Notes under the pieces: generated by a model
What the model saw: the letters and a program-made list of their open reading frames with translations, nothing else
Database searches by the model: none
Told to the model about the DNA's origin: nothing
Program-made: the position numbers and the translations under genes
DNA from: an archaeon
GTDB lineage: Archaea > Iainarchaeota > Iainarchaeia > Iainarchaeales > JAAZKV01
NCBI GenBank assembly: GCA_036170245.1
Contig: JAVHOV010000017.1
Coordinates: forward strand, 1-14,559
Length of the DNA: 14,559 bases
Reading direction: 5' to 3'
Shown here: in pieces, positions 7,073 to 14,559 of the stretch
Layout of the letters: every line of letters starts with the position of its first letter
Numbering within the stretch: the stretch's first letter is position 1

Positions 7073-7438
7073 CTAGTTAATCGCTTTTTCAATATAATCC
7101 ACATCAAGTTCCTGATTTGATTGAATTGCTACAATTCGGCACCCGTACTTCTTTGCTTTCTCTTTAATATTACTTAACTTTTCAGTTTCTAATATCTCTA
7201 TTGCAACTGATTTTTCGGGCAAGTAAATATCTGCCCTGCTTTCCACATTAATTCTAGCTTCTGTCCAAAAGGGTTCATTAAGCATTTTTAGAAAATAACA
7301 CACTTCGGACTTTTTCAAGTAATGCGTTTTGCTCTCGCTCTTTGTACTAAAATTAATTACATTTAGTTTATTGTTCTGCTTTAATCTCCAATCAACCTGC
7401 ATAAAAATACCTTTCCAATAAAATGATGATTTGGACAT
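7073..7438 (-). CDS. Small CoiA-like PD-(D/E)XK nuclease-fold protein
   Basis: ESKTHYLKK...WTEA...RADIY...VAIEILETE pattern; 121 aa. Alternative start at 7402 (MQVDW). Confidence 0.7.
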   Translation of the reverse strand: MSKSSFYWKGIFMQVDWRLKQNNKLNVINFSTKSESKTHYLKKSEVCYFLKMLNEPFWTEARINVESRADIYLPEKSVAIEILETEKLSNIKEKAKKYGCRIVAIQSNQELDVDYIEKAIN

Positions 7439-7724: not shown

Positions 7725-7849
7725 CTAAATAAAACCTTAACAAAACGGATTATAATAGTTACTTTAAGAAAAAACGAATTAGACTTAATTCTTAGAGTGA
7801 ATGCGGAAAGCCCGCCAAAACTTATTAAAAATAATATAAGTTTTAGGTA

Positions 7850-7935
7850 TTTAGGTAGATGAGTTCTTGTATATTCATCTACCTAATTAGACTCACGTTT
7901 AGGTAGATGAGTTTATATATATTTATCTACCTAAA
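7850..7935. repeat. Two tandem 36-bp palindromic units (48-bp period) upstream of the Fic gene
   Basis: Unit 1: TTAGGTAGATGA(7851-7862)-N12-TCATCTACCTAA(7875-7886). Unit 2: TTAGGTAGATGA(7899-7910)-N12-TTATCTACCTAA(7923-7934). Segments 7850-7886 and 7898-7934 match at 33/37. The unit 2 spacer holds TTTATATA (7912-7919). Confidence 0.92.
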
Positions 7936-7942
7936 TTAGTAT

Positions 7943-8878
7943 ATGACACTGACTATTAAGAAAGTAAGTGGTAAGGACTATTACTATTCAGTTCTAAGTT
8001 TTTATGTAATTGACAAATCAAGAAATTTTAGCAAATATATTGGTTTAGAAAAACCATCCATGGAAGTATTAGAAAAGACTGAAGATGAATTTAGGGATGA
8101 AATAATTACAAGACTTTCAAAAAAACCATACACTCAAGAATTTGTTTCAAAAGACGATGTTATTAAATCGCTTCTATTTAGAGACTCTTTTCTAAAAAAA
8201 TATAATTCTTTAACGAGTGTAAAAAAGAAAAAATATGATACAGAGAGTATAGATTCTTTTACGTTGACAACTCTTACAACCGAAGAAGTGGATGTTGATA
8301 TTAATGATGTTATAAATGCTAGAAAAAAGACTACTCCTTTGACTGAAAGAGAACAAATTAGTAAAAACATGCTTAATGCTATTACTTCAATTAATGAACC
8401 TCACCCACTTGACAGAAAATATTTTCTTGAATTGCACAAAACTATTATGGCAACTTTCAAACATAAAAGACCTGGACTTATAAGAAACAAGAATGTGCAT
8501 TTGTACGCAAGTGATGGAAAATCAATTAGTCGTGAATTAACTTACACCCCCCCGCATTACAATGAAGTAAGCGGCTTGCTTAATGAATTTCTTAGTTGGT
8601 ATACTACATGCAATCTTAATCCAATAGAAAAATCTGCTATGGCTCATTATAAACTTTATAGACTTCACCCATTTTTAGATGGGAATAAAAGAATGTGTAG
8701 ACTTTTAGTTAACAAAACTTTATTTGATGAAAAGTTTCCTCTTCTCAATATTTCATTTGAAAAGGAAAAGTACTTTACTGCAATAATTAGTGCAGTAGAA
8801 AACAAGAAACCACAATTATTAGTTGAGTTTGCATTACAAACATATTACAAACAAGTCAAGCAATTTATTAGCAATTAA
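7943..8878 (+). CDS. Fic/Doc family protein with N-terminal beta-hairpin module
   Basis: Fic signature HPFLDGNKRMCR, LELHKTIM, PGLIR, YTPP. No SD; TATA box ends ~24 nt upstream, so probably leaderless. Confidence 0.93.
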   Translation: MTLTIKKVSGKDYYYSVLSFYVIDKSRNFSKYIGLEKPSMEVLEKTEDEFRDEIITRLSKKPYTQEFVSKDDVIKSLLFRDSFLKKYNSLTSVKKKKYDTESIDSFTLTTLTTEEVDVDINDVINARKKTTPLTEREQISKNMLNAITSINEPHPLDRKYFLELHKTIMATFKHKRPGLIRNKNVHLYASDGKSISRELTYTPPHYNEVSGLLNEFLSWYTTCNLNPIEKSAMAHYKLYRLHPFLDGNKRMCRLLVNKTLFDEKFPLLNISFEKEKYFTAIISAVENKKPQLLVEFALQTYYKQVKQFISN

Positions 8879-8882
8879 ATAA

Positions 8883-9155
8883 TTAGGTATTCAATCTAAT
8901 TCCTTTTTGGTCGTCTAAGTCAATTACTATTAACTGATGACCATTTTTTTGGTTTTGTCCGAAGCTTATTGAATATTTTTTATCCGGACAGTATTTTTCT
9001 CCTACATATAGGCGAGGCACATTTATCAGGTAGTGATAGTCTCTTGTTCCTCTGCCTTTCAAACGTAACTTATTGTAGGATTTGAGTCCTTCTTGAAAGG
9101 AGTAGATTATTTGTTGTGCTTTTAGAGCAATGTTGATGTAGGCAGTTTCTTCCAT
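8883..9155 (-). CDS. Hypothetical protein, possible AbrB/SpoVT-like DNA-binding protein
   Basis: 90 aa; GGAGGTC SD (rc 9161-9167); KLRLKGRG..YHYLINVPR resembles the swapped-hairpin K..G.sy.itiP motif. Confidence 0.65.
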   Translation of the reverse strand: MEETAYINIALKAQQIIYSFQEGLKSYNKLRLKGRGTRDYHYLINVPRLYVGEKYCPDKKYSISFGQNQKNGHQLIVIDLDDQKGIRLNT

Positions 9156-9283
9156 TCTTTGACCTCCTTTGGTTGAAGCATTGCTTGGTGGACTTCTTCT
9201 AAAACTATTTCTTCTTCTGGTAGTAGTACTCCACCTAATCTTTTTATTTCTTCTAGTACTTCTGCGTATATTTTTGAAATCAT
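9122..9283 (-). CDS. Small hypothetical protein, 53 aa (not in ORF track)
   Basis: Manual translation: MISKIYAEVLEEIKRLGGVLLPEEEIVLEEVHQAMLQPKEVKEWKKLPTSTLL*. GTGA SD (rc 9290-9293), TTTATAAG box upstream, overlaps the start of the next gene. Confidence 0.6.
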   Translation of the reverse strand: MISKIYAEVLEEIKRLGGVLLPEEEIVLEEVHQAMLQPKEVKEWKKLPTSTLL

Positions 9284-9464: not shown

Positions 9465-9764
9465 ATGATGAAAAGAAGTTTGTTAATAGTCATGGCAGTA
9501 ATGCTAGTAACTCAATTAGTTTTTGCTGCTTCAGTAAGTGACATTACAGAACCTATAACAAAAATCTATGATTTGATTAAAGGAGTTGTTTCAGTTGTTG
9601 GAGTAATTTCAATTACCGTTGCTGGAGCAATGTACATGTTCTCTGGATCAAATATTCAAGCTAGAGAAAATTCTAAGTCAATGGTAACGTACGCAGTAGT
9701 TGGATTAGTGTTAGTTTGGGTTGCGCCATTAATAGTAACCTATTTGACAGCATCAGCGTTATGA
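9465..9764 (+). CDS. TrbC/VirB2-like (T4SS) pilin
   Basis: Signal peptide ending VFA, then two hydrophobic helices joined by AGAMYMFSGSNIQARENSKSMV, ending YAVVGLVLVWVAPLIV; AGGAGG SD at 9452-9457. Confidence 0.85.
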   Translation: MMKRSLLIVMAVMLVTQLVFAASVSDITEPITKIYDLIKGVVSVVGVISITVAGAMYMFSGSNIQARENSKSMVTYAVVGLVLVWVAPLIVTYLTASAL

Positions 9765-9781
9765 AAGGAGATTGTGGGAAA

Positions 9782-10810
9782 ATGTTTAAATGGTTTGAAT
9801 GGTTTCTACCAGCAATACTAATAATAAGTTTGCTGGCACCCTACTCCTACGCAATTACTGTTAGAATAGATGTTTCGGGAATAATTAATGCAGTAAATGG
9901 AAATACACAAAGTACACAACAAGCACAAGAAGACACCAGAGATACACTCAATACTTCTTTACTTGGTTTGCCCCTAGGAATGTTCGGACTATTCACTAAC
10001 TCAATGAAAGAGTCAATCAAAAATTTTAACACAAGCCTACTAGACTTAACTAAAGAATTGCTTTCAGCTAATCCAGATCCTCAATTAATGTTTGGTTGGT
10101 GGCAATCAATCACAATAATAATTTCATCATTTTATTTACTAATCTTTTTGTTAATAGGATTTAATTTTTTGATTAATGGACACAGTATTGTGAAAAGAGA
10201 ACAATCTAAGGAATGGTTGAAGAATGCAGTGATAATGATTATTGGAGTAAGCACCTCATTTTACTTATATGAATTAATTCTTGGTTTGGGTAGTGGGATA
10301 ACTAAGTTTATGTGGATGACTGGATTTGAACAATTCTTTTCAACCACAATGTTTGACGGCTCAGGAATGCTAATGCTATTATCTTTTTTAGTTTCAATTA
10401 CACTCGCACTAGTAACACTATTTTTCAGATACTTGTTTTTGTTAGTTGGAGTAGTTTTGTTTCCAATTGGAATTTTTCTTTATCTTACTCCTAAGTTTGA
10501 GAATTGGGGCAAAGTAATTTTTAATTTTATTGGAATAATGCTTGCAATTCAATTTGTTGATGTCATCGTTCTAATCGCAACTCAACAAGCAATTACTCAA
10601 CTTGTAGGAAATGCAGGAGCAGGATTCATTTTACCTTTAGGTTTCTTGATTGTTGCAATCATCAACTCTGCCATGATGATATACTCTATTCTAAAATCAG
10701 CCCTCGCAATTGCCAACAACGCACCCATAATCAACATGGCAGTAAGTGCACTATCAGGAAATATAGTGGGTGCAGTTGGCAGTGCAAAACAAAGCGGAAC
10801 AGTGAACTAA
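9782..10810 (+). CDS. Polytopic membrane protein, VirB6/TrbL (CedA/TedA)-like
   Basis: Signal/TM segment, polar helical region, then ~6-7 hydrophobic segments including FFRYLFLLVGVVLFPIG and a Gly/Ala-rich tail; follows the pilin directly. Start at ATG 9782 (AAGGAG upstream) or ATG 9761 (ATGA overlap) rather than 9716. Confidence 0.75.
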   Translation: MFKWFEWFLPAILIISLLAPYSYAITVRIDVSGIINAVNGNTQSTQQAQEDTRDTLNTSLLGLPLGMFGLFTNSMKESIKNFNTSLLDLTKELLSANPDPQLMFGWWQSITIIISSFYLLIFLLIGFNFLINGHSIVKREQSKEWLKNAVIMIIGVSTSFYLYELILGLGSGITKFMWMTGFEQFFSTTMFDGSGMLMLLSFLVSITLALVTLFFRYLFLLVGVVLFPIGIFLYLTPKFENWGKVIFNFIGIMLAIQFVDVIVLIATQQAITQLVGNAGAGFILPLGFLIVAIINSAMMIYSILKSALAIANNAPIINMAVSALSGNIVGAVGSAKQSGTVN

Positions 10811-10811
10811 A

Positions 10812-11657
10812 ATGTCTTATGAAATACCAAAAAATTTGAAATACGAAGAAAAGTTCTTCTTCAACTTATCTTTGAGTCAAGCTGGTTGGCTCGGATTATT
10901 TGGAACCTTAGGGGCAATAGTTTTTCTAAAAACCCCTTTGCCTTTCGAATTCAAACTAGTACTAGGAGTATTGCTCTTAGCTATTGGTGGAGGATTTGCT
11001 TTTCTAAATCTTCGAGAACATTTGACTACTTTTGCTAATTATTTTTTGCGACCTAAGGAACTTGGTTATTTGGATAAAGAAATGGAGAGTTTTATTGAAG
11101 TAAAAAGAATTGCGGACAATACTTTATTTTTAACTAATAATTCTGCTAAAGCAATTATACAAATTCAACCAATTAACTTTCATATCCTTGATGTTAGAAA
11201 CCAACAAGCAATAATTTCAGCTTACAAAGACTTTCTAAATTCTCTAGATTTTCCAATTCAAATAGTAATGAGAACAGTAAACCTTTCCCTAGAAGAATAC
11301 CTCAAAACACTCGGACAGAAAGTAAAAAAGTCTAAGAATGAAAAGATGCATAAGCAATTTGCTGACTTTAAAGATTTTATTTTAAATTACATTGAAAACC
11401 ACGCAGTAAAAAATCGTTTGTTCTATATTGTGATTCCTTCGGATGAAAAAAACCCAAAGTATATTTTAAACCAACTTGATATTCGTGTTACTCTTTGTCA
11501 AGAGAAGCTAAAATCATGTAACCTAACAACTAAGCGATTGAATACTAATGAACTCGTTTCGATGCTTTCGAGTTACTTTGAAGGATTTATTGAAAATGGT
11601 AATGAGTACCTTTCAGTTTTGTCATTCTTAGAAAAACAAAAGGAGGTGACTCAATGA
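10812..11657 (+). CDS. PrgI-like membrane domain fused to TraC/VirB4-N-terminal-like domain
   Basis: YEIPKNLKYEEKFFFNLSLSQ plus two TM helices and ..YFLRPK (PrgI-like), then IQPINFHIL..QQAIISAYKDFLNSLDFPIQIV..RLFYIVIP..KRLNTNEL. Confidence 0.8.
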   Translation: MSYEIPKNLKYEEKFFFNLSLSQAGWLGLFGTLGAIVFLKTPLPFEFKLVLGVLLLAIGGGFAFLNLREHLTTFANYFLRPKELGYLDKEMESFIEVKRIADNTLFLTNNSAKAIIQIQPINFHILDVRNQQAIISAYKDFLNSLDFPIQIVMRTVNLSLEEYLKTLGQKVKKSKNEKMHKQFADFKDFILNYIENHAVKNRLFYIVIPSDEKNPKYILNQLDIRVTLCQEKLKSCNLTTKRLNTNELVSMLSSYFEGFIENGNEYLSVLSFLEKQKEVTQ

Positions 11658-11776
11658 CAGACCAAACGCCAAGAGAACTCTCTGTGATTTTGTACAATGG
11701 AAAAAGATACTTTGTAGACCACAGACTGCACCAAATGAGAAACGTGACAAACCCTAACGATTGCATCCAATTCTAA
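11654..11776 (+). CDS. Micro-protein, 40 aa (not in ORF track)
   Basis: MTDQTPRELSVILYNGKRYFVDHRLHQMRNVTNPNDCIQF*; perfect GGAGGTGA SD at 11642-11649 and ATGA overlap with the upstream stop. Confidence 0.75.
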   Translation: MTDQTPRELSVILYNGKRYFVDHRLHQMRNVTNPNDCIQF

Positions 11777-11797
11777 ACTAAATGGAGGTGAAGGTGG

Positions 11798-11965
11798 ATG
11801 ATAACAAAATACAGAAGAAGAATGAACAGCATCTTAGAAAAAATATTAGGAAAAAAACAAGCAACGATTCAAGAAAGTGTAGTGCCTAAAAGTGAGGAAC
11901 ATGAGCTTTGTGAGAACGAAAACAATCAAGGGCAATCAGTACAGCTACCTAGTGGAGAACAATAG
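11798..11965 (+). CDS. Micro-protein, 55 aa (not in ORF track)
   Basis: [55 protein letters not shown]; perfect GGAGGTGA SD at 11784-11791. Confidence 0.55.
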
Positions 11966-12065
11966 AGTGAACGGAAAAGTGAAACAAAAATGCATACAAT
12001 ACTTAGGAAGGATTTACAATGAAGGAATTAGAGAAACTACTCAAACCATCGTACGTCAAAAATGA
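11901..12065 (+). CDS. Micro-protein, 54 aa, predicted beta-sheet DNA-binding module (not in ORF track)
   Basis: [54 protein letters not shown]. The K.IKG..Y.YLVE..RV.GKVKQK...YLG motif is recognisable from IS1634-type transposase N-termini. Confidence 0.7.
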
Positions 12066-14292
12066 ATTCGACTGCCTAAAAGTAAACGAACAAATGACAC
12101 GAACAATAATGGCAGTAGGATACCCAAGAACTATTAGAGAAGGTTGGCTAGACTCAATCATTTCCAGTGAAGGAAATTTTGATATGTCAATGCACATCAA
12201 GCCTAGCCACATTGCTTCAATCATAACCCAACTCAATCAAGAATTAGTAAAACAAGAATCCGACCTAATGTCAGCCCAAATGAAAGGCATAGTAAACCCC
12301 TCTCTAAAACTCCAACACCAAGACACCCTAAACGTTTTAGAAAAACTCCAAAAAGGTGAAGAGAAACTATTCAACATTTCTCTTTACCTCGGAGCAAGAG
12401 CATACGACAAAGAAAAACTCGATTTACTAACAAAAAAGATTCTAGCAGAATTAAATTCAATAATGATAATACCAAAAATACCTTTTTTGAAAATGAATGA
12501 AGGTGCAAAAGCACTCTACCCCATACAAGAAGATAAGTTGAACATTAATAGAAATATTCCTAGTGATGCTTTAGCCGCTTGCTTTCCATTCACCACAGCT
12601 TATTTGAATATTGACCAAGAAGGAATCCTATTCGGCTTAAACAAAATCAACAACATCCCAATTATTTTAGACCCATTTCACTTTGCAAATTACAACGGAC
12701 TAATACTAGGAACATCAGGAGGAGGAAAAAGTGTTACTGCAAAACTCTTTATTCTTAGAAATATTTTGCGCGGAGTAAAAACAATTATGATTGATCCTCA
12801 AGGAGAATACGTTGACCTAACCAAAGCATACAATGGACAATTAGTTGAAATTCACAGAGAAAGTAAATCAATAATTAACCCATTTGATTTAATGAATTCC
12901 GACTTGGGAGAAAAAACAATTACCTTAATGGATTTATTCAAAATACTTTGTGGAGAACTAACTGAAGTTCAAAAAAATATTTTAGATAAAGCAATTCACA
13001 TTAGTTATCAGCAAAAAGGAATCCTACCAGAAGACTCAAATACTTGGACTAAAGAACCTCCAATAATGGAAGACCTGTATAATGAAATAATTAAAGAAAA
13101 AAAGACAGCATCTCGCTTAGAAAAAATGACATACGAAGCTTTAGAGAATAGATTGAGGATTTATGTAAAAGGCTCTTTTTCATTTATCAACAAGCAAACT
13201 AGTCTTGATTTGACTAATGATTTAATTTGTTTTAACATCGCAAACATGCCTTCACAAATTAAACCTGTAATGATGTATTTGATTCTTGATTTTGTTCATA
13301 AGAAAATGCAAAAAGATAAAGAAAGAAAAACTTTGATTATTGATGAGGCTTGGTCTTTGTTACAATTTGCAGAAAACTCAAAATCAATCTTCGAACTAAT
13401 AAAAACTGCAAGAAAATTTGGTTTAGGAATAGTAATTATTACTCAAGAAGTAGAAGATTTACTTTCTTCTCCTGCTGGGAAAACTATTCTAGCAAACACC
13501 GCATGGAAATATCTCTCGCGACAAGAACCTGCTTGTATTCAAGAGTTAGCAGAGAAGTTTCACTTAAATCAAGAAGAACAAAATTACTTATTAACTTCAA
13601 TGCCCGGAGAAGGACTCTTATTTGCAATGAACGACCATATTCCACTTAGAGTTATTCCTAGTCCAAGCGAAATGGAGTTAATTACAACTAATCCTGATGA
13701 GATTCGAAAGAGGGAAGAGAAACTCAAAGAGTTAAGCACTACAAAAAAAGAAGATTTAGAACCATACAAAATAGAAAAAACATATTACTTAACTAGTGAG
13801 TTGAATGAACAGCAAACAGATTTTTTGAAGAGTAATGGTTTTGTTGAATCTCGTTTGTGTGGTTTGGATAATTCTTCAAAACAATATTTAGTAAAAAAGC
13901 CAAGTGGAAGCGAAAGTGTCGAGCATTTTTTTATGGTTCAGATTGTTGCTGAAGAAGTTAGGCACTACACAAACAAAATTACTTTAGACTCAACAGTGAA
14001 TCCAGATATTTCATTTGAAATAGAAAAAAATGGTTTTATTGAGAAATATGCGATTGAGATTGAAACGGGAAGCCAATCAAGAAACACTGGAGAGATGAAT
14101 GCAAAAGTAGAGAAAAACAATTCGTTTGGTTACAAGAAGTGGTGGTTTTTGGTAACAGACTTTTTAGCAAAAAGAGAATATGAAAAACTGCATTCAACTT
14201 TAAAGAGAACTGAAGTCAAATCGCTTTTAGAAAAAATGTTTAAGGAGGGATTAAATGGAAGACAACAAAAAATTATTGATGCTAGCCAATAG
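12019..14292 (+). CDS. VirB4/TraC-family ATPase with C-terminal PD-(D/E)XK-like extension
   Basis: [30 protein letters not shown] (Walker A), [20 protein letters not shown] (Walker B), ARKFG, ITQEVED, GEGL, ITTNP. The last ~190 aa contain [18 protein letters not shown]. Confidence 0.92.
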
Positions 14293-14559
14293 AGCAAGCG
14301 CAATAAGAGAATCACTAATCAATTTAATCAAAGACGGCAGAGCCTACTCAGCAGAAGTAAGCAATATTTTAGAAGACTACTATAAAATATTAGATTCTGC
14401 AAAAGAATTGGATTCAGACATTGAAGCTCCTGAAGTAGATAAGTATAATCCAGTTTATTTATCAGGAGCCCTTGAAGCCTTAACATCCGCAATAAGATTA
14501 GCCTCAGGAGAGAATGAAATTGATACAGAAAAACTAAAAGTAGAATCAGTTGAGTTAAG
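14255..14559 (+). CDS. Hypothetical protein, partial (runs off the window)
   Basis: AAGGAGG SD at 14242-14248 and ATG 14255; open to the end: [35 protein letters not shown]... (101 codons, no stop); overlaps the ATPase 3' end. Confidence 0.75.
   Translation, partial: MEDNKKLLMLANRASAIRESLINLIKDGRAYSAEVSNILEDYYKILDSAKELDSDIEAPEVDKYNPVYLSGALEALTSAIRLASGENEIDTEKLKVESVEL

Follow-up and report, generated by a model that had tools for sequence, protein, structure and literature searches.

A VirB4 ATPase fused to a predicted nuclease in a candidate conjugation module of DPANN integrative elements

Bacterial relaxases pilot DNA into the recipient cell. The way in which archaea achieve conjugation with no relaxase is described as an open question in a 2025 review (PMC12857230) and in three further papers (PMC9905601, PMC6563490, and PMC4390865), and the available portions of the first two report no relaxase known on archaeal conjugative plasmids. 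As far as the accessible parts of the sources go, no VirB3–VirB4 fusions have been found in Patescibacteria's type IV secretion system (T4SS) (PMC12102498; Quinonero-Coronel et al. 2025), a pilin-like region is reported for CedA and, less strongly, for VirB6 (PMC9905601), and giant nanohaloarchaeal proteins contain VirB4-like domains in a different architecture (PMC10266531). Here, we describe a T4SS-like operon in a window of 14,559 nucleotides, which is the whole of contig C17 from the 867-kb, 86%-complete genome of a groundwater archaeon of the Iainarchaeota (DPANN). On balance, we favor the reading that the operon is a conjugation module of DPANN elements that insert at tRNA genes in relatives, and that a predicted nuclease fused to its ATPase cuts the element DNA at the channel and thereby replaces both relaxase and coupling protein. 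The searched literature (partial texts, main articles only) contains no description of DPANN conjugative elements and none of a nuclease fused to VirB4 or to an archaeal VirD4, with the proviso that older plasmid papers may mention such domains.

The operon reads on the plus strand, and all four T4SS genes lie where a preliminary description of this DNA had placed them; its assignment of the contig to a DPANN archaeon likewise holds. The features are as follows.

9465..9764, plus strand: VirB2/TrbC-type pilin of 99 amino acids (aa), with a signal segment and two hydrophobic helices, preceded by the Shine-Dalgarno (SD) motif GGAGG
9782..10810, plus strand: polytopic channel protein of 342 aa that resembles VirB6/TrbL and includes a pilin-like region
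10812..11657, plus strand: PrgI (VirB3) fused to TrsD (the N-terminal part of VirB4), 281 aa
11654..12065, plus strand: three small overlapping open reading frames (ORFs) at 11654–11776, 11798–11965, and 11892–12065, kept in close relatives
12019..13728, plus strand: ATPase part (residues 1–570) of the 757-aa VirB4, resembling mating-pair formation class FATA (MPF-FATA) and CD1110 proteins, with Walker A GTSGGGKS and Walker B IIDEAW
13744..14292, plus strand: C-terminal PD-(D/E)xK-fold domain of VirB4 (residues 576–757), a predicted nuclease, with H636, D663, E680, E682, and K696
14255..14559, plus strand: first 101 codons of a DUF4145-domain protein, accessory, cut by the contig end

The PrgI–TrsD start lies 1 nt past the VirB6 stop. 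The earlier picture of overlapping or adjacent genes does not hold for PrgI–TrsD and VirB4, which are separated by 361 nt holding the three small ORFs. The SD motifs that had been reported are present as GGAGG before the pilin, two of the small ORFs, and the last ORF, but are weaker before VirB6 and VirB4 and absent before PrgI. The DUF4145 protein, whose family was assigned from full-length homologs, measures 241 to 246 aa in relatives and is present at 4 of 81 loci.

The pilin matches T4SS_pilin (PF18895, E 1e-12) and TrbC (PF04956, E 2.9e-12), both above cut-off, in agreement with its original assignment to the VirB2 type. The polytopic protein has seven hydrophobic segments and matches no Pfam family. 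For its AlphaFold model (predicted local distance difference test score, pLDDT, 87.6), the best natural Foldseek match is R388 TrwI/VirB6, which occupies ranks 2 to 6 with E 0.09 to 0.2 (none under 0.001), and VIA gave Z 7.8 across 204 residues against R388 VirB6, a value equaled by unrelated helical chains. T4SS_pilin is matched by 40 of 71 homologs of this protein and TrbL by one of the 71, and both gene position and topology agree with VirB6. The next gene had been called a PrgI/TraC fusion. PrgI (PF12666) is indeed found over cut-off at residues 5–78 (E 3e-7) and the fusion is genuine, but the second part is TrsD, a split-off N-terminal part of VirB4 (NF041427, a weak match at E 5e-4). VirB4 itself (12019–14292) scores 314 bits against the CD1110 model NF045971 (E 2e-93; cut-off 325), 264 bits against the Mycoplasma integrative and conjugative element (ICE) model Mbov_0397, and 50 bits against CedB (cut-off 700), and its best plasmid matches are monoderm MPF-FATA proteins at no more than 31% identity. 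Its earlier identification as a VirB4-like ATPase is borne out by the tree presented below, in which it groups with VirB4s and not with VirD4s. The small operon is conserved and under purifying selection, with a nonsynonymous-to-synonymous ratio (dN/dS) of 0.03 to 0.06 for the ATPase in seven pairs. We conclude that the operon is real and encodes a VirB2 pilin, a VirB6-like channel, a PrgI(VirB3)–TrsD fusion, and an MPF-FATA-type VirB4.

The preliminary description missed the mobility of the family and also the C-terminal nuclease-fold domain of VirB4, a feature relevant to the missing relaxase. Sequence searches of Pfam and PDB gave no match for residues 576–757, and nothing in the plasmid collection matched the nuclease domain. 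Its model (about 170 residues, pLDDT 90.9) retrieved restriction-like folds in the top Foldseek rows, with a best E of 1e-3 followed by Cdn1, FokI, YaeQ, and BamHI, and VIA aligned it with Cdn1 (Z 8.7, root-mean-square deviation 4.8, 133 aligned residues) and VC1899 (Z 8.5, root-mean-square deviation 3.0, 112 aligned residues). Among 169 sequences, H636, D663, and an acid at position 680 are present in all 169, E682 in 167, and K696 in 166, so that the acidic active-site pattern is an ExE variant; another residue, Tyr721, is kept in 159. On the basis of the model and this pattern, we predict that the domain belongs to the PD-(D/E)xK fold and is a DNA nuclease. It is fused to VirB4 at 70 of 80 loci, and the remaining 10 include several cut by contig ends, two with the domain in a separate ORF, and a few lacking it. 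For the domain, the two closest pairs give dN/dS values of 0.04 and 0.03 and a third gives 0.16; in four pairs, the ratio is saturated. Many of the listed longer forms that have no ATPase part begin with hydrophobic segments, and the domain therefore seems to act at the membrane. In separate-protein forms (P0041, P0048, P0052, and others, as well as L098:12028–13083), we observed N-terminal hydrophobic segments and a charged linker, and one such protein directly follows VirB4.

A VirD4 coupling protein and a relaxase had been noted as missing from view, and this observation extends to complete related elements. When 86 of the 100 ORFs of at least 95 aa in five complete elements were scanned with NCBIfam (E ≤ 1e-8), the other 14 being core operon ORFs, no VirD4 or relaxase was found, nor was there one among the 20 ORFs of the G101 element. 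Their absence is therefore not only an effect of the contig end. Custom archaeal-plasmid VirD4 and Replic_Relax profiles likewise detected neither protein in 14 longer regions, and no known relaxase of the mobility (MOB) classes was detected with Pfam, NCBIfam, or the Replic_Relax profile. Across the phylum, Replic_Relax exceeds its cut-off in one of 215 genomes, and six of seven TraG-D_C matches are the VirB4s described here. A separate type IV coupling protein (T4CP) was rejected as a candidate: the VirB4 profile revealed no second HerA/FtsK-type ATPase at 80 loci, and around the sole VirD4-like match, in G205, the 20 kb retrieved lack pilin, PrgI, and VirB4. The genome that contains the window has only a housekeeping HerA-like gene, on contig C32.

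Presence and absence across related genomes, which the preliminary description had left to be surveyed, proved patchy. With VirB4 matches counted at E ≤ 1e-20 and partial matches included, the gene is present in 46 of the 215 phylum genomes (16 of the 58 that are at least 90% complete), in 6 of the 21 further genus members (two partial), and in 39 of 251 sampled genomes from the phylum of a Woesearchaeota-labeled genome (one, G522, is unpublished), where up to three copies occur on one contig. The same search recovered VirB4 in 59 of 61 genomes from the phylum of a Peregrinibacteria-labeled genome (Patescibacteria). Modules that are 85 to 98% identical sit at different sites, beside carAB, tRNA-Leu, tRNA-Glu, and others. 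Over 80 loci, the conserved order is pilin, an optional membrane-anchored surface protein (30 of the 80), VirB6-like protein, PrgI–TrsD, and VirB4. We examined 22 longer regions (8 and 14) for attachment (att) repeats. In six relatives, direct repeats of 13 to 16 bp from a tRNA 3′ end bracket integrase and operon, giving elements of 23 kb (G101), 28 kb (G216), 24 kb (G218), 23 kb (G394), 21 kb (G370), and 14 kb (G336); such a repeat arose in 0.05 to 7.6% of random draws for the five of these six elements tested. The G015 module lies in an island of about 49 kb between two genes that are adjacent on contig C24 of the window's own genome, and no att repeat was found for this island. In G018, a copy of 9 kb has decayed: its VirB6 is truncated, and it has a repeat of 12 bp. 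Cargo in relatives consists largely of restriction-modification, Dnd, Fic, and PolB-module genes and other defense genes. A viral origin was rejected, as no relative was found in viral contigs. We conclude that this family of DPANN integrative elements is mobile, as its sequences indicate, with apparent insertion at tRNA genes in relatives. Because the module is patchy, sometimes multi-copy, located at different sites, and borne on att-bounded integrase elements, conjugation of a mobile element is favored among the three functions originally offered for it, and the other two, host contact and DNA uptake, are less supported.

The module of the window's copy is intact and conserved. The left 7.7 kb of the window holds ordinary host genes (cytidylyltransferase, pyrB, permease, MarR, and SPFH), and assembled contigs of three groundwater metagenome runs, each a possible source of this DNA, span from host genes into the element across position ~7800, so the join is not an assembly chimera. 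All four runs that matched best derive from groundwater metagenomes within a single study; no RNA dataset was listed as containing the sequence, which carries no information about expression. No tRNA or tRNA fragment is present in the window, and no excision joint was found within it in assembled contigs. A GC-rich 12-mer at ~7800–7811 was tried as an att site and rejected as weak, since it matches the G018 att at only 10 of 12 positions. The end of contig C11 (17074–20287) contains an intron-containing tRNA-Ser(GGA), a tyrosine integrase, and an AAA_14/DUF4143 gene. In G019, the genes flanking the same tRNA-Ser are followed by one ORF and then by an ortholog of window 7073–7438, and G216 and G370 share the layout tRNA, integrase, cargo, inward-pointing operon, att. 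On the strength of this gene order and layout, C11 and C17 are likely two ends of one element, and the C11 integrase beside tRNA-Ser is the likely partner of the window's copy.

In the mechanism that we propose, the tyrosine integrase would excise a circle, PrgI–TrsD would anchor VirB4 under the VirB6 pore, and the VirB2 pilus would contact another DPANN cell. The single ATPase would serve both pilus assembly and the pumping of DNA through the VirB6 pore, while the fused domain, tethered to the motor, would nick or open the circle at a transfer origin. The integrase would then put the element back at a tRNA gene. With the domain tethered to the motor, no pilot protein would travel with the DNA, and the nicking step would therefore differ from that of bacterial conjugation, even if the domain nicks.

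Several observations weigh against this proposal. For the window's own copy, contig C17 carries no integrase, and no 14-mer of the tRNA-Ser 3′ end occurs near the left edge of its element, so this copy may be immobile; read depth is also alike over element and host genes. Within the family, an integrase lies no more than 10 kb away at only 23 of 80 loci, only 6 of 22 regions show clear repeats around the operon, and the att-bounded integrase element of G036 and that of G309 leave the operon outside. A divergent relaxase or coupling protein is possible among the unnamed ORFs or in trans. As for the domain, no Foldseek match falls below E 0.001, and a response regulator reaches VIA Z 7.4. The 150 domain representatives divide into 42 with the ATPase part, 52 short forms, and 56 longer forms that lack this part, and four VirB4s of the same clade have no domain; given such stand-alone and domain-less forms, the domain is not obligatory. 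Nor is its membership in MOBC/Replic_Relax supported, since hhalign gave a probability of 0.6% (E 0.099), no better than the match to a DUF4143 control. The D..ExE..K motifs align in register with the reference used, one Chloroflexi-type Replic_Relax subfamily, and score no better than controls. An Atlas pointer to MOBC/Replic_Relax (12% of the cluster, 0.76) serves as a lead only, and PF13814 was absent among the 25 families, of 35 in all, that were listed for 28 domain sequences. The MOBC relaxase motif has a Tyr four residues after the conserved Lys, and a Tyr at this position occurs in only 6 of the 169 domain sequences.

Other explanations were compared with the proposed cut-and-pump conjugation. 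The elements might be conjugative with nicking by the tyrosine integrase, or with pumping of double-stranded DNA (dsDNA), and the fused domain might only bind or trim DNA. MOBM relaxases derive from tyrosine recombinases, and the integrase alone among the remaining DNA-processing genes is conserved; the absence of a significant Replic_Relax match and the few loci without the domain fit as well. TcpM is listed as a tyrosine-recombinase relaxase in the available text of PMC12857230, and the proposal of dsDNA transfer in archaea is repeated in that of PMC6563490. We nevertheless regard this explanation as rather unlikely: the near-invariant nuclease-type residues suit catalysis better than binding alone, and the operon stays constant whereas the integrases vary widely (31 to 65% identical to that of C11).

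It is improbable, in our estimate, that the module instead imports DNA as Ced and Ted do, with a membrane-held nuclease that degrades one strand for recombination or the whole as nucleotide food. The CedB score lies far below its cut-off, and patchy, multi-copy, att-bounded, and often decayed copies (as in G018 and on the genome's own contig C30) suit a selfish element with little to gain from import, even though the minimal parts and the lack of a coupling protein are those of Ced/Ted (PMC9905601, as far as available), membrane-tethered stand-alone forms of the domain exist, and a nuclease-less sister group has no integrase in view. We assign a still smaller chance to a symbiont's machine for host contact or effector secretion, comparable to the T4SS that is essential in Patescibacteria, for which mobile elements would be no more than vehicles. 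By score, the nearest sequences outside DPANN are Patescibacteria VirB4s (identity of up to 38% and 410 bits, against 31% at most for plasmids), the same PrgI, TrsD, VirB6, and pilin set is described in the accessible portion of PMC12102498, and the surface protein would suit such contact. Yet the module was not found in 169 of 215 phylum genomes, including 42 of the 58 at least 90% complete, in contrast to its near-constant presence in Patescibacteria, and this patchy, element-borne distribution argues against a fixed role of that kind; the DPANN VirB4s also form a separate clade, and none of 30 Patescibacteria VirB4s has the nuclease domain.

A parallel to the proposed fused nuclease was found on archaeal conjugative plasmids. 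Eight VirD4 homologs were fetched from 17 records with matches covering at least 80% of the query (pNOB8, pAH1, pARN3, pTC, pSOG1, pBEU9E1, pHGQ25, and pT33-3), and all eight end in PD..A[VI]EIES. A wHTH (winged helix-turn-helix) precedes this motif, with matches in six of the eight (five at E 2e-5 to 0.002 and one at 0.16). Two examples are located as follows.

L267:6801–9878: VirD4/TraG homolog of pNOB8, with wHTH and PD..A[VI]EIES
L268:19908–24020: VirD4/TraG homolog of pT33-3, with wHTH and PD..A[VI]EIES

Both archaeal systems without a known relaxase thus carry a nuclease-type motif on a conjugation ATPase. The DPANN domain profile matches the C-terminal region of the plasmid VirD4s at E 0.0024, scoring higher than each of 100 column shuffles, and five other profiles, which are shallower, gave E 0.25 to 0.69 against the same region; on the opposite side, the match has a probability of only 12% over 32 columns. 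These values are weak evidence that the DPANN and plasmid domains are related, and the plasmid VirD4 C-terminal domain is a candidate relaxase substitute. A tentative generalization, which we hold with considerable reserve, is that archaeal conjugation uses a PD..ExE nuclease fused to an ATPase (VirD4 in the Sulfolobales plasmids and pT33-3, VirB4 in DPANN) instead of a free relaxase, and that DPANN also dropped the coupling protein.

A FastTree phylogeny was built from 60 of 102 ATPase-domain rows, taking every second row of three large groups and leaving out the HerA-like rows, CedB, and TedB. The DPANN VirB4s form one clade (local support 100) comprising Iainarchaeota (100), Woese/Pacearchaeota (96), and four VirB4s without the nuclease domain (100), and the VirB4s of Patescibacteria (98) and archaeal plasmids (100) are separate from it. 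We claim no donor, because this tree does not settle how DPANN, Patescibacteria, FATA, and archaeal plasmids branch relative to one another. The nuclease-less sister group (L295, L296, L297, and L298) has separate TrsD, PrgI, VirB6, and pilin genes and may be a domesticated form.

Further features lie between the likely left edge of the element and the operon.

7850..7934, no strand: tandem pair of imperfect 37-nt palindromes, located upstream of the Fic gene and close to where the left element edge likely lies; possible operator
7943..8878, plus strand: Fic-domain protein, likely element cargo
8883..9155, minus strand: conserved small protein of 90 aa without a family, likely regulator, divergent from the pilin in close relatives
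9122..9283, minus strand: 53-aa ORF upstream of the 90-aa gene; some relatives have homologs in the corresponding position

The element L168, which is 95% identical, carries a Fic gene other than this one between integrase and regulator. By eye, the 57-aa ORF at 11892–12065 and the Fic N terminus (7943–8050) share the pattern K.I.G..Y.Y..........K...Y.G, perhaps a small DNA-binding module. Window 7073–7438 encodes a stand-alone small protein with an H..D..EI motif of the PD-(D/E)xK type, which adjoins tRNA-Ser(GGA) in several members of the genus. The first 55 bases of the window recur terminally on five further contigs of this genome and on contigs of relatives, a distribution that identifies them as a short assembly-breaking repeat. 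Elsewhere in the genome, C30:4195–8617 is a second, decayed copy without T4SS genes that retains an integrase piece, a 93-aa regulator, a promoter region, a TrmB remnant, and Fic; on the same contig, C30:931–3991 holds ORFs that resemble, from their translations, a reverse transcriptase, Avd, and a lectin target, and is likely a diversity-generating retroelement. Among relatives, the G015 element (L019:9156–13597) carries SRAP, a VRR-NUC nuclease, and a module of PolB, a small protein, and a RadA-like protein that we take to resemble a damage-inducible mutagenesis cassette, and G218:C6:83000–152000 contains three related elements and four integrases within 70 kb. Two bins, L060 (Peregrinibacteria-labeled) and L118 (Bdellovibrionales-labeled), each contain archaeal-type elements together with a Patescibacteria-type VirB4 and are probably mis-binned or mislabeled; L060 was treated as a mis-binned contig because its gene order repeats that of the archaeal L061.

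If the proposed mechanism is correct, DPANN archaea have a three-to-four-gene, single-motor machine that would be smaller than any other conjugation system proposed. With this family, relaxase-less archaeal conjugation gains a concrete candidate enzyme, and because plasmids able to transfer in culture bear the matching domain on their VirD4, the question can be tested in harmless laboratory archaea. With partial matches counted, about every fifth or sixth genome sampled from two DPANN phyla has the module, often as part of integrative elements moving defense genes, and this in lineages for which the searched partial texts describe no conjugative element.

We regard the system as a real and new variant of an MPF-FATA-like T4SS. 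It shares with the MPF-FATA systems of monoderms (CD1110-type and Mycoplasma ICEs) the best VirB4 models, PrgI/VirB3, TrsD, a VirB6-like protein, and an integrative lifestyle, but no VirD4, relaxase, VirB8, or cell-wall hydrolase was found here, a VirB2 pilin is present, and VirB4 ends in the nuclease-fold domain. Compared with a canonical ICE, integrase and att are found in six relatives and not for the window's copy, and no coupling protein or known MOB relaxase was found. The monoderm and Patescibacteria sets to which the operon had been likened from the start do resemble it in gene content, but its VirB4 belongs to a separate DPANN clade. The Patescibacteria T4SS, according to the available text of PMC12102498, likewise has VirB4, TrsD, PrgI, VirB6, and a VirB2 pilin and mostly no relaxase; there, the system is near-universal and chromosomal, whereas here, it is patchy and element-borne. 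Unlike the Patescibacteria T4SS, the DPANN family commonly fuses VirB3 to VirB4, with PrgI–TrsD–VirB4 as one protein at 36 of 80 loci, mostly in Woese/Pacearchaeota. Ced/Ted (Beltran et al. 2023, PMC9905601) is alike in having a pilin, a VirB6-like pore with a pilin-like region, one VirB4, and no coupling protein; these systems are domesticated chromosomal importers for which the accessible portion of that paper reports no PrgI/TrsD or fused nuclease, whereas the DPANN family is mobile and far from CedB by score. MOBC relaxases (Replic_Relax, PF13814; TraX of pAD1 and MobC of CloDF13) share the restriction-enzyme fold, as stated in the available part of PMC12857230, and the motif register; they are free proteins beside a T4CP, whereas the DPANN domain is fused to VirB4 and mostly has no Tyr after the Lys. 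Archaeal conjugative plasmids (the pNOB8 family and pT33-3) and thaumarchaeal ICEs (PMC6563490, as far as accessible) are likewise archaeal and VirB4-based, with a tyrosine integrase and no recognized relaxase. The plasmids have two ATPases and carry the PD..ExE domain on VirD4 after a wHTH, whereas the DPANN system has one ATPase and carries the domain on VirB4.

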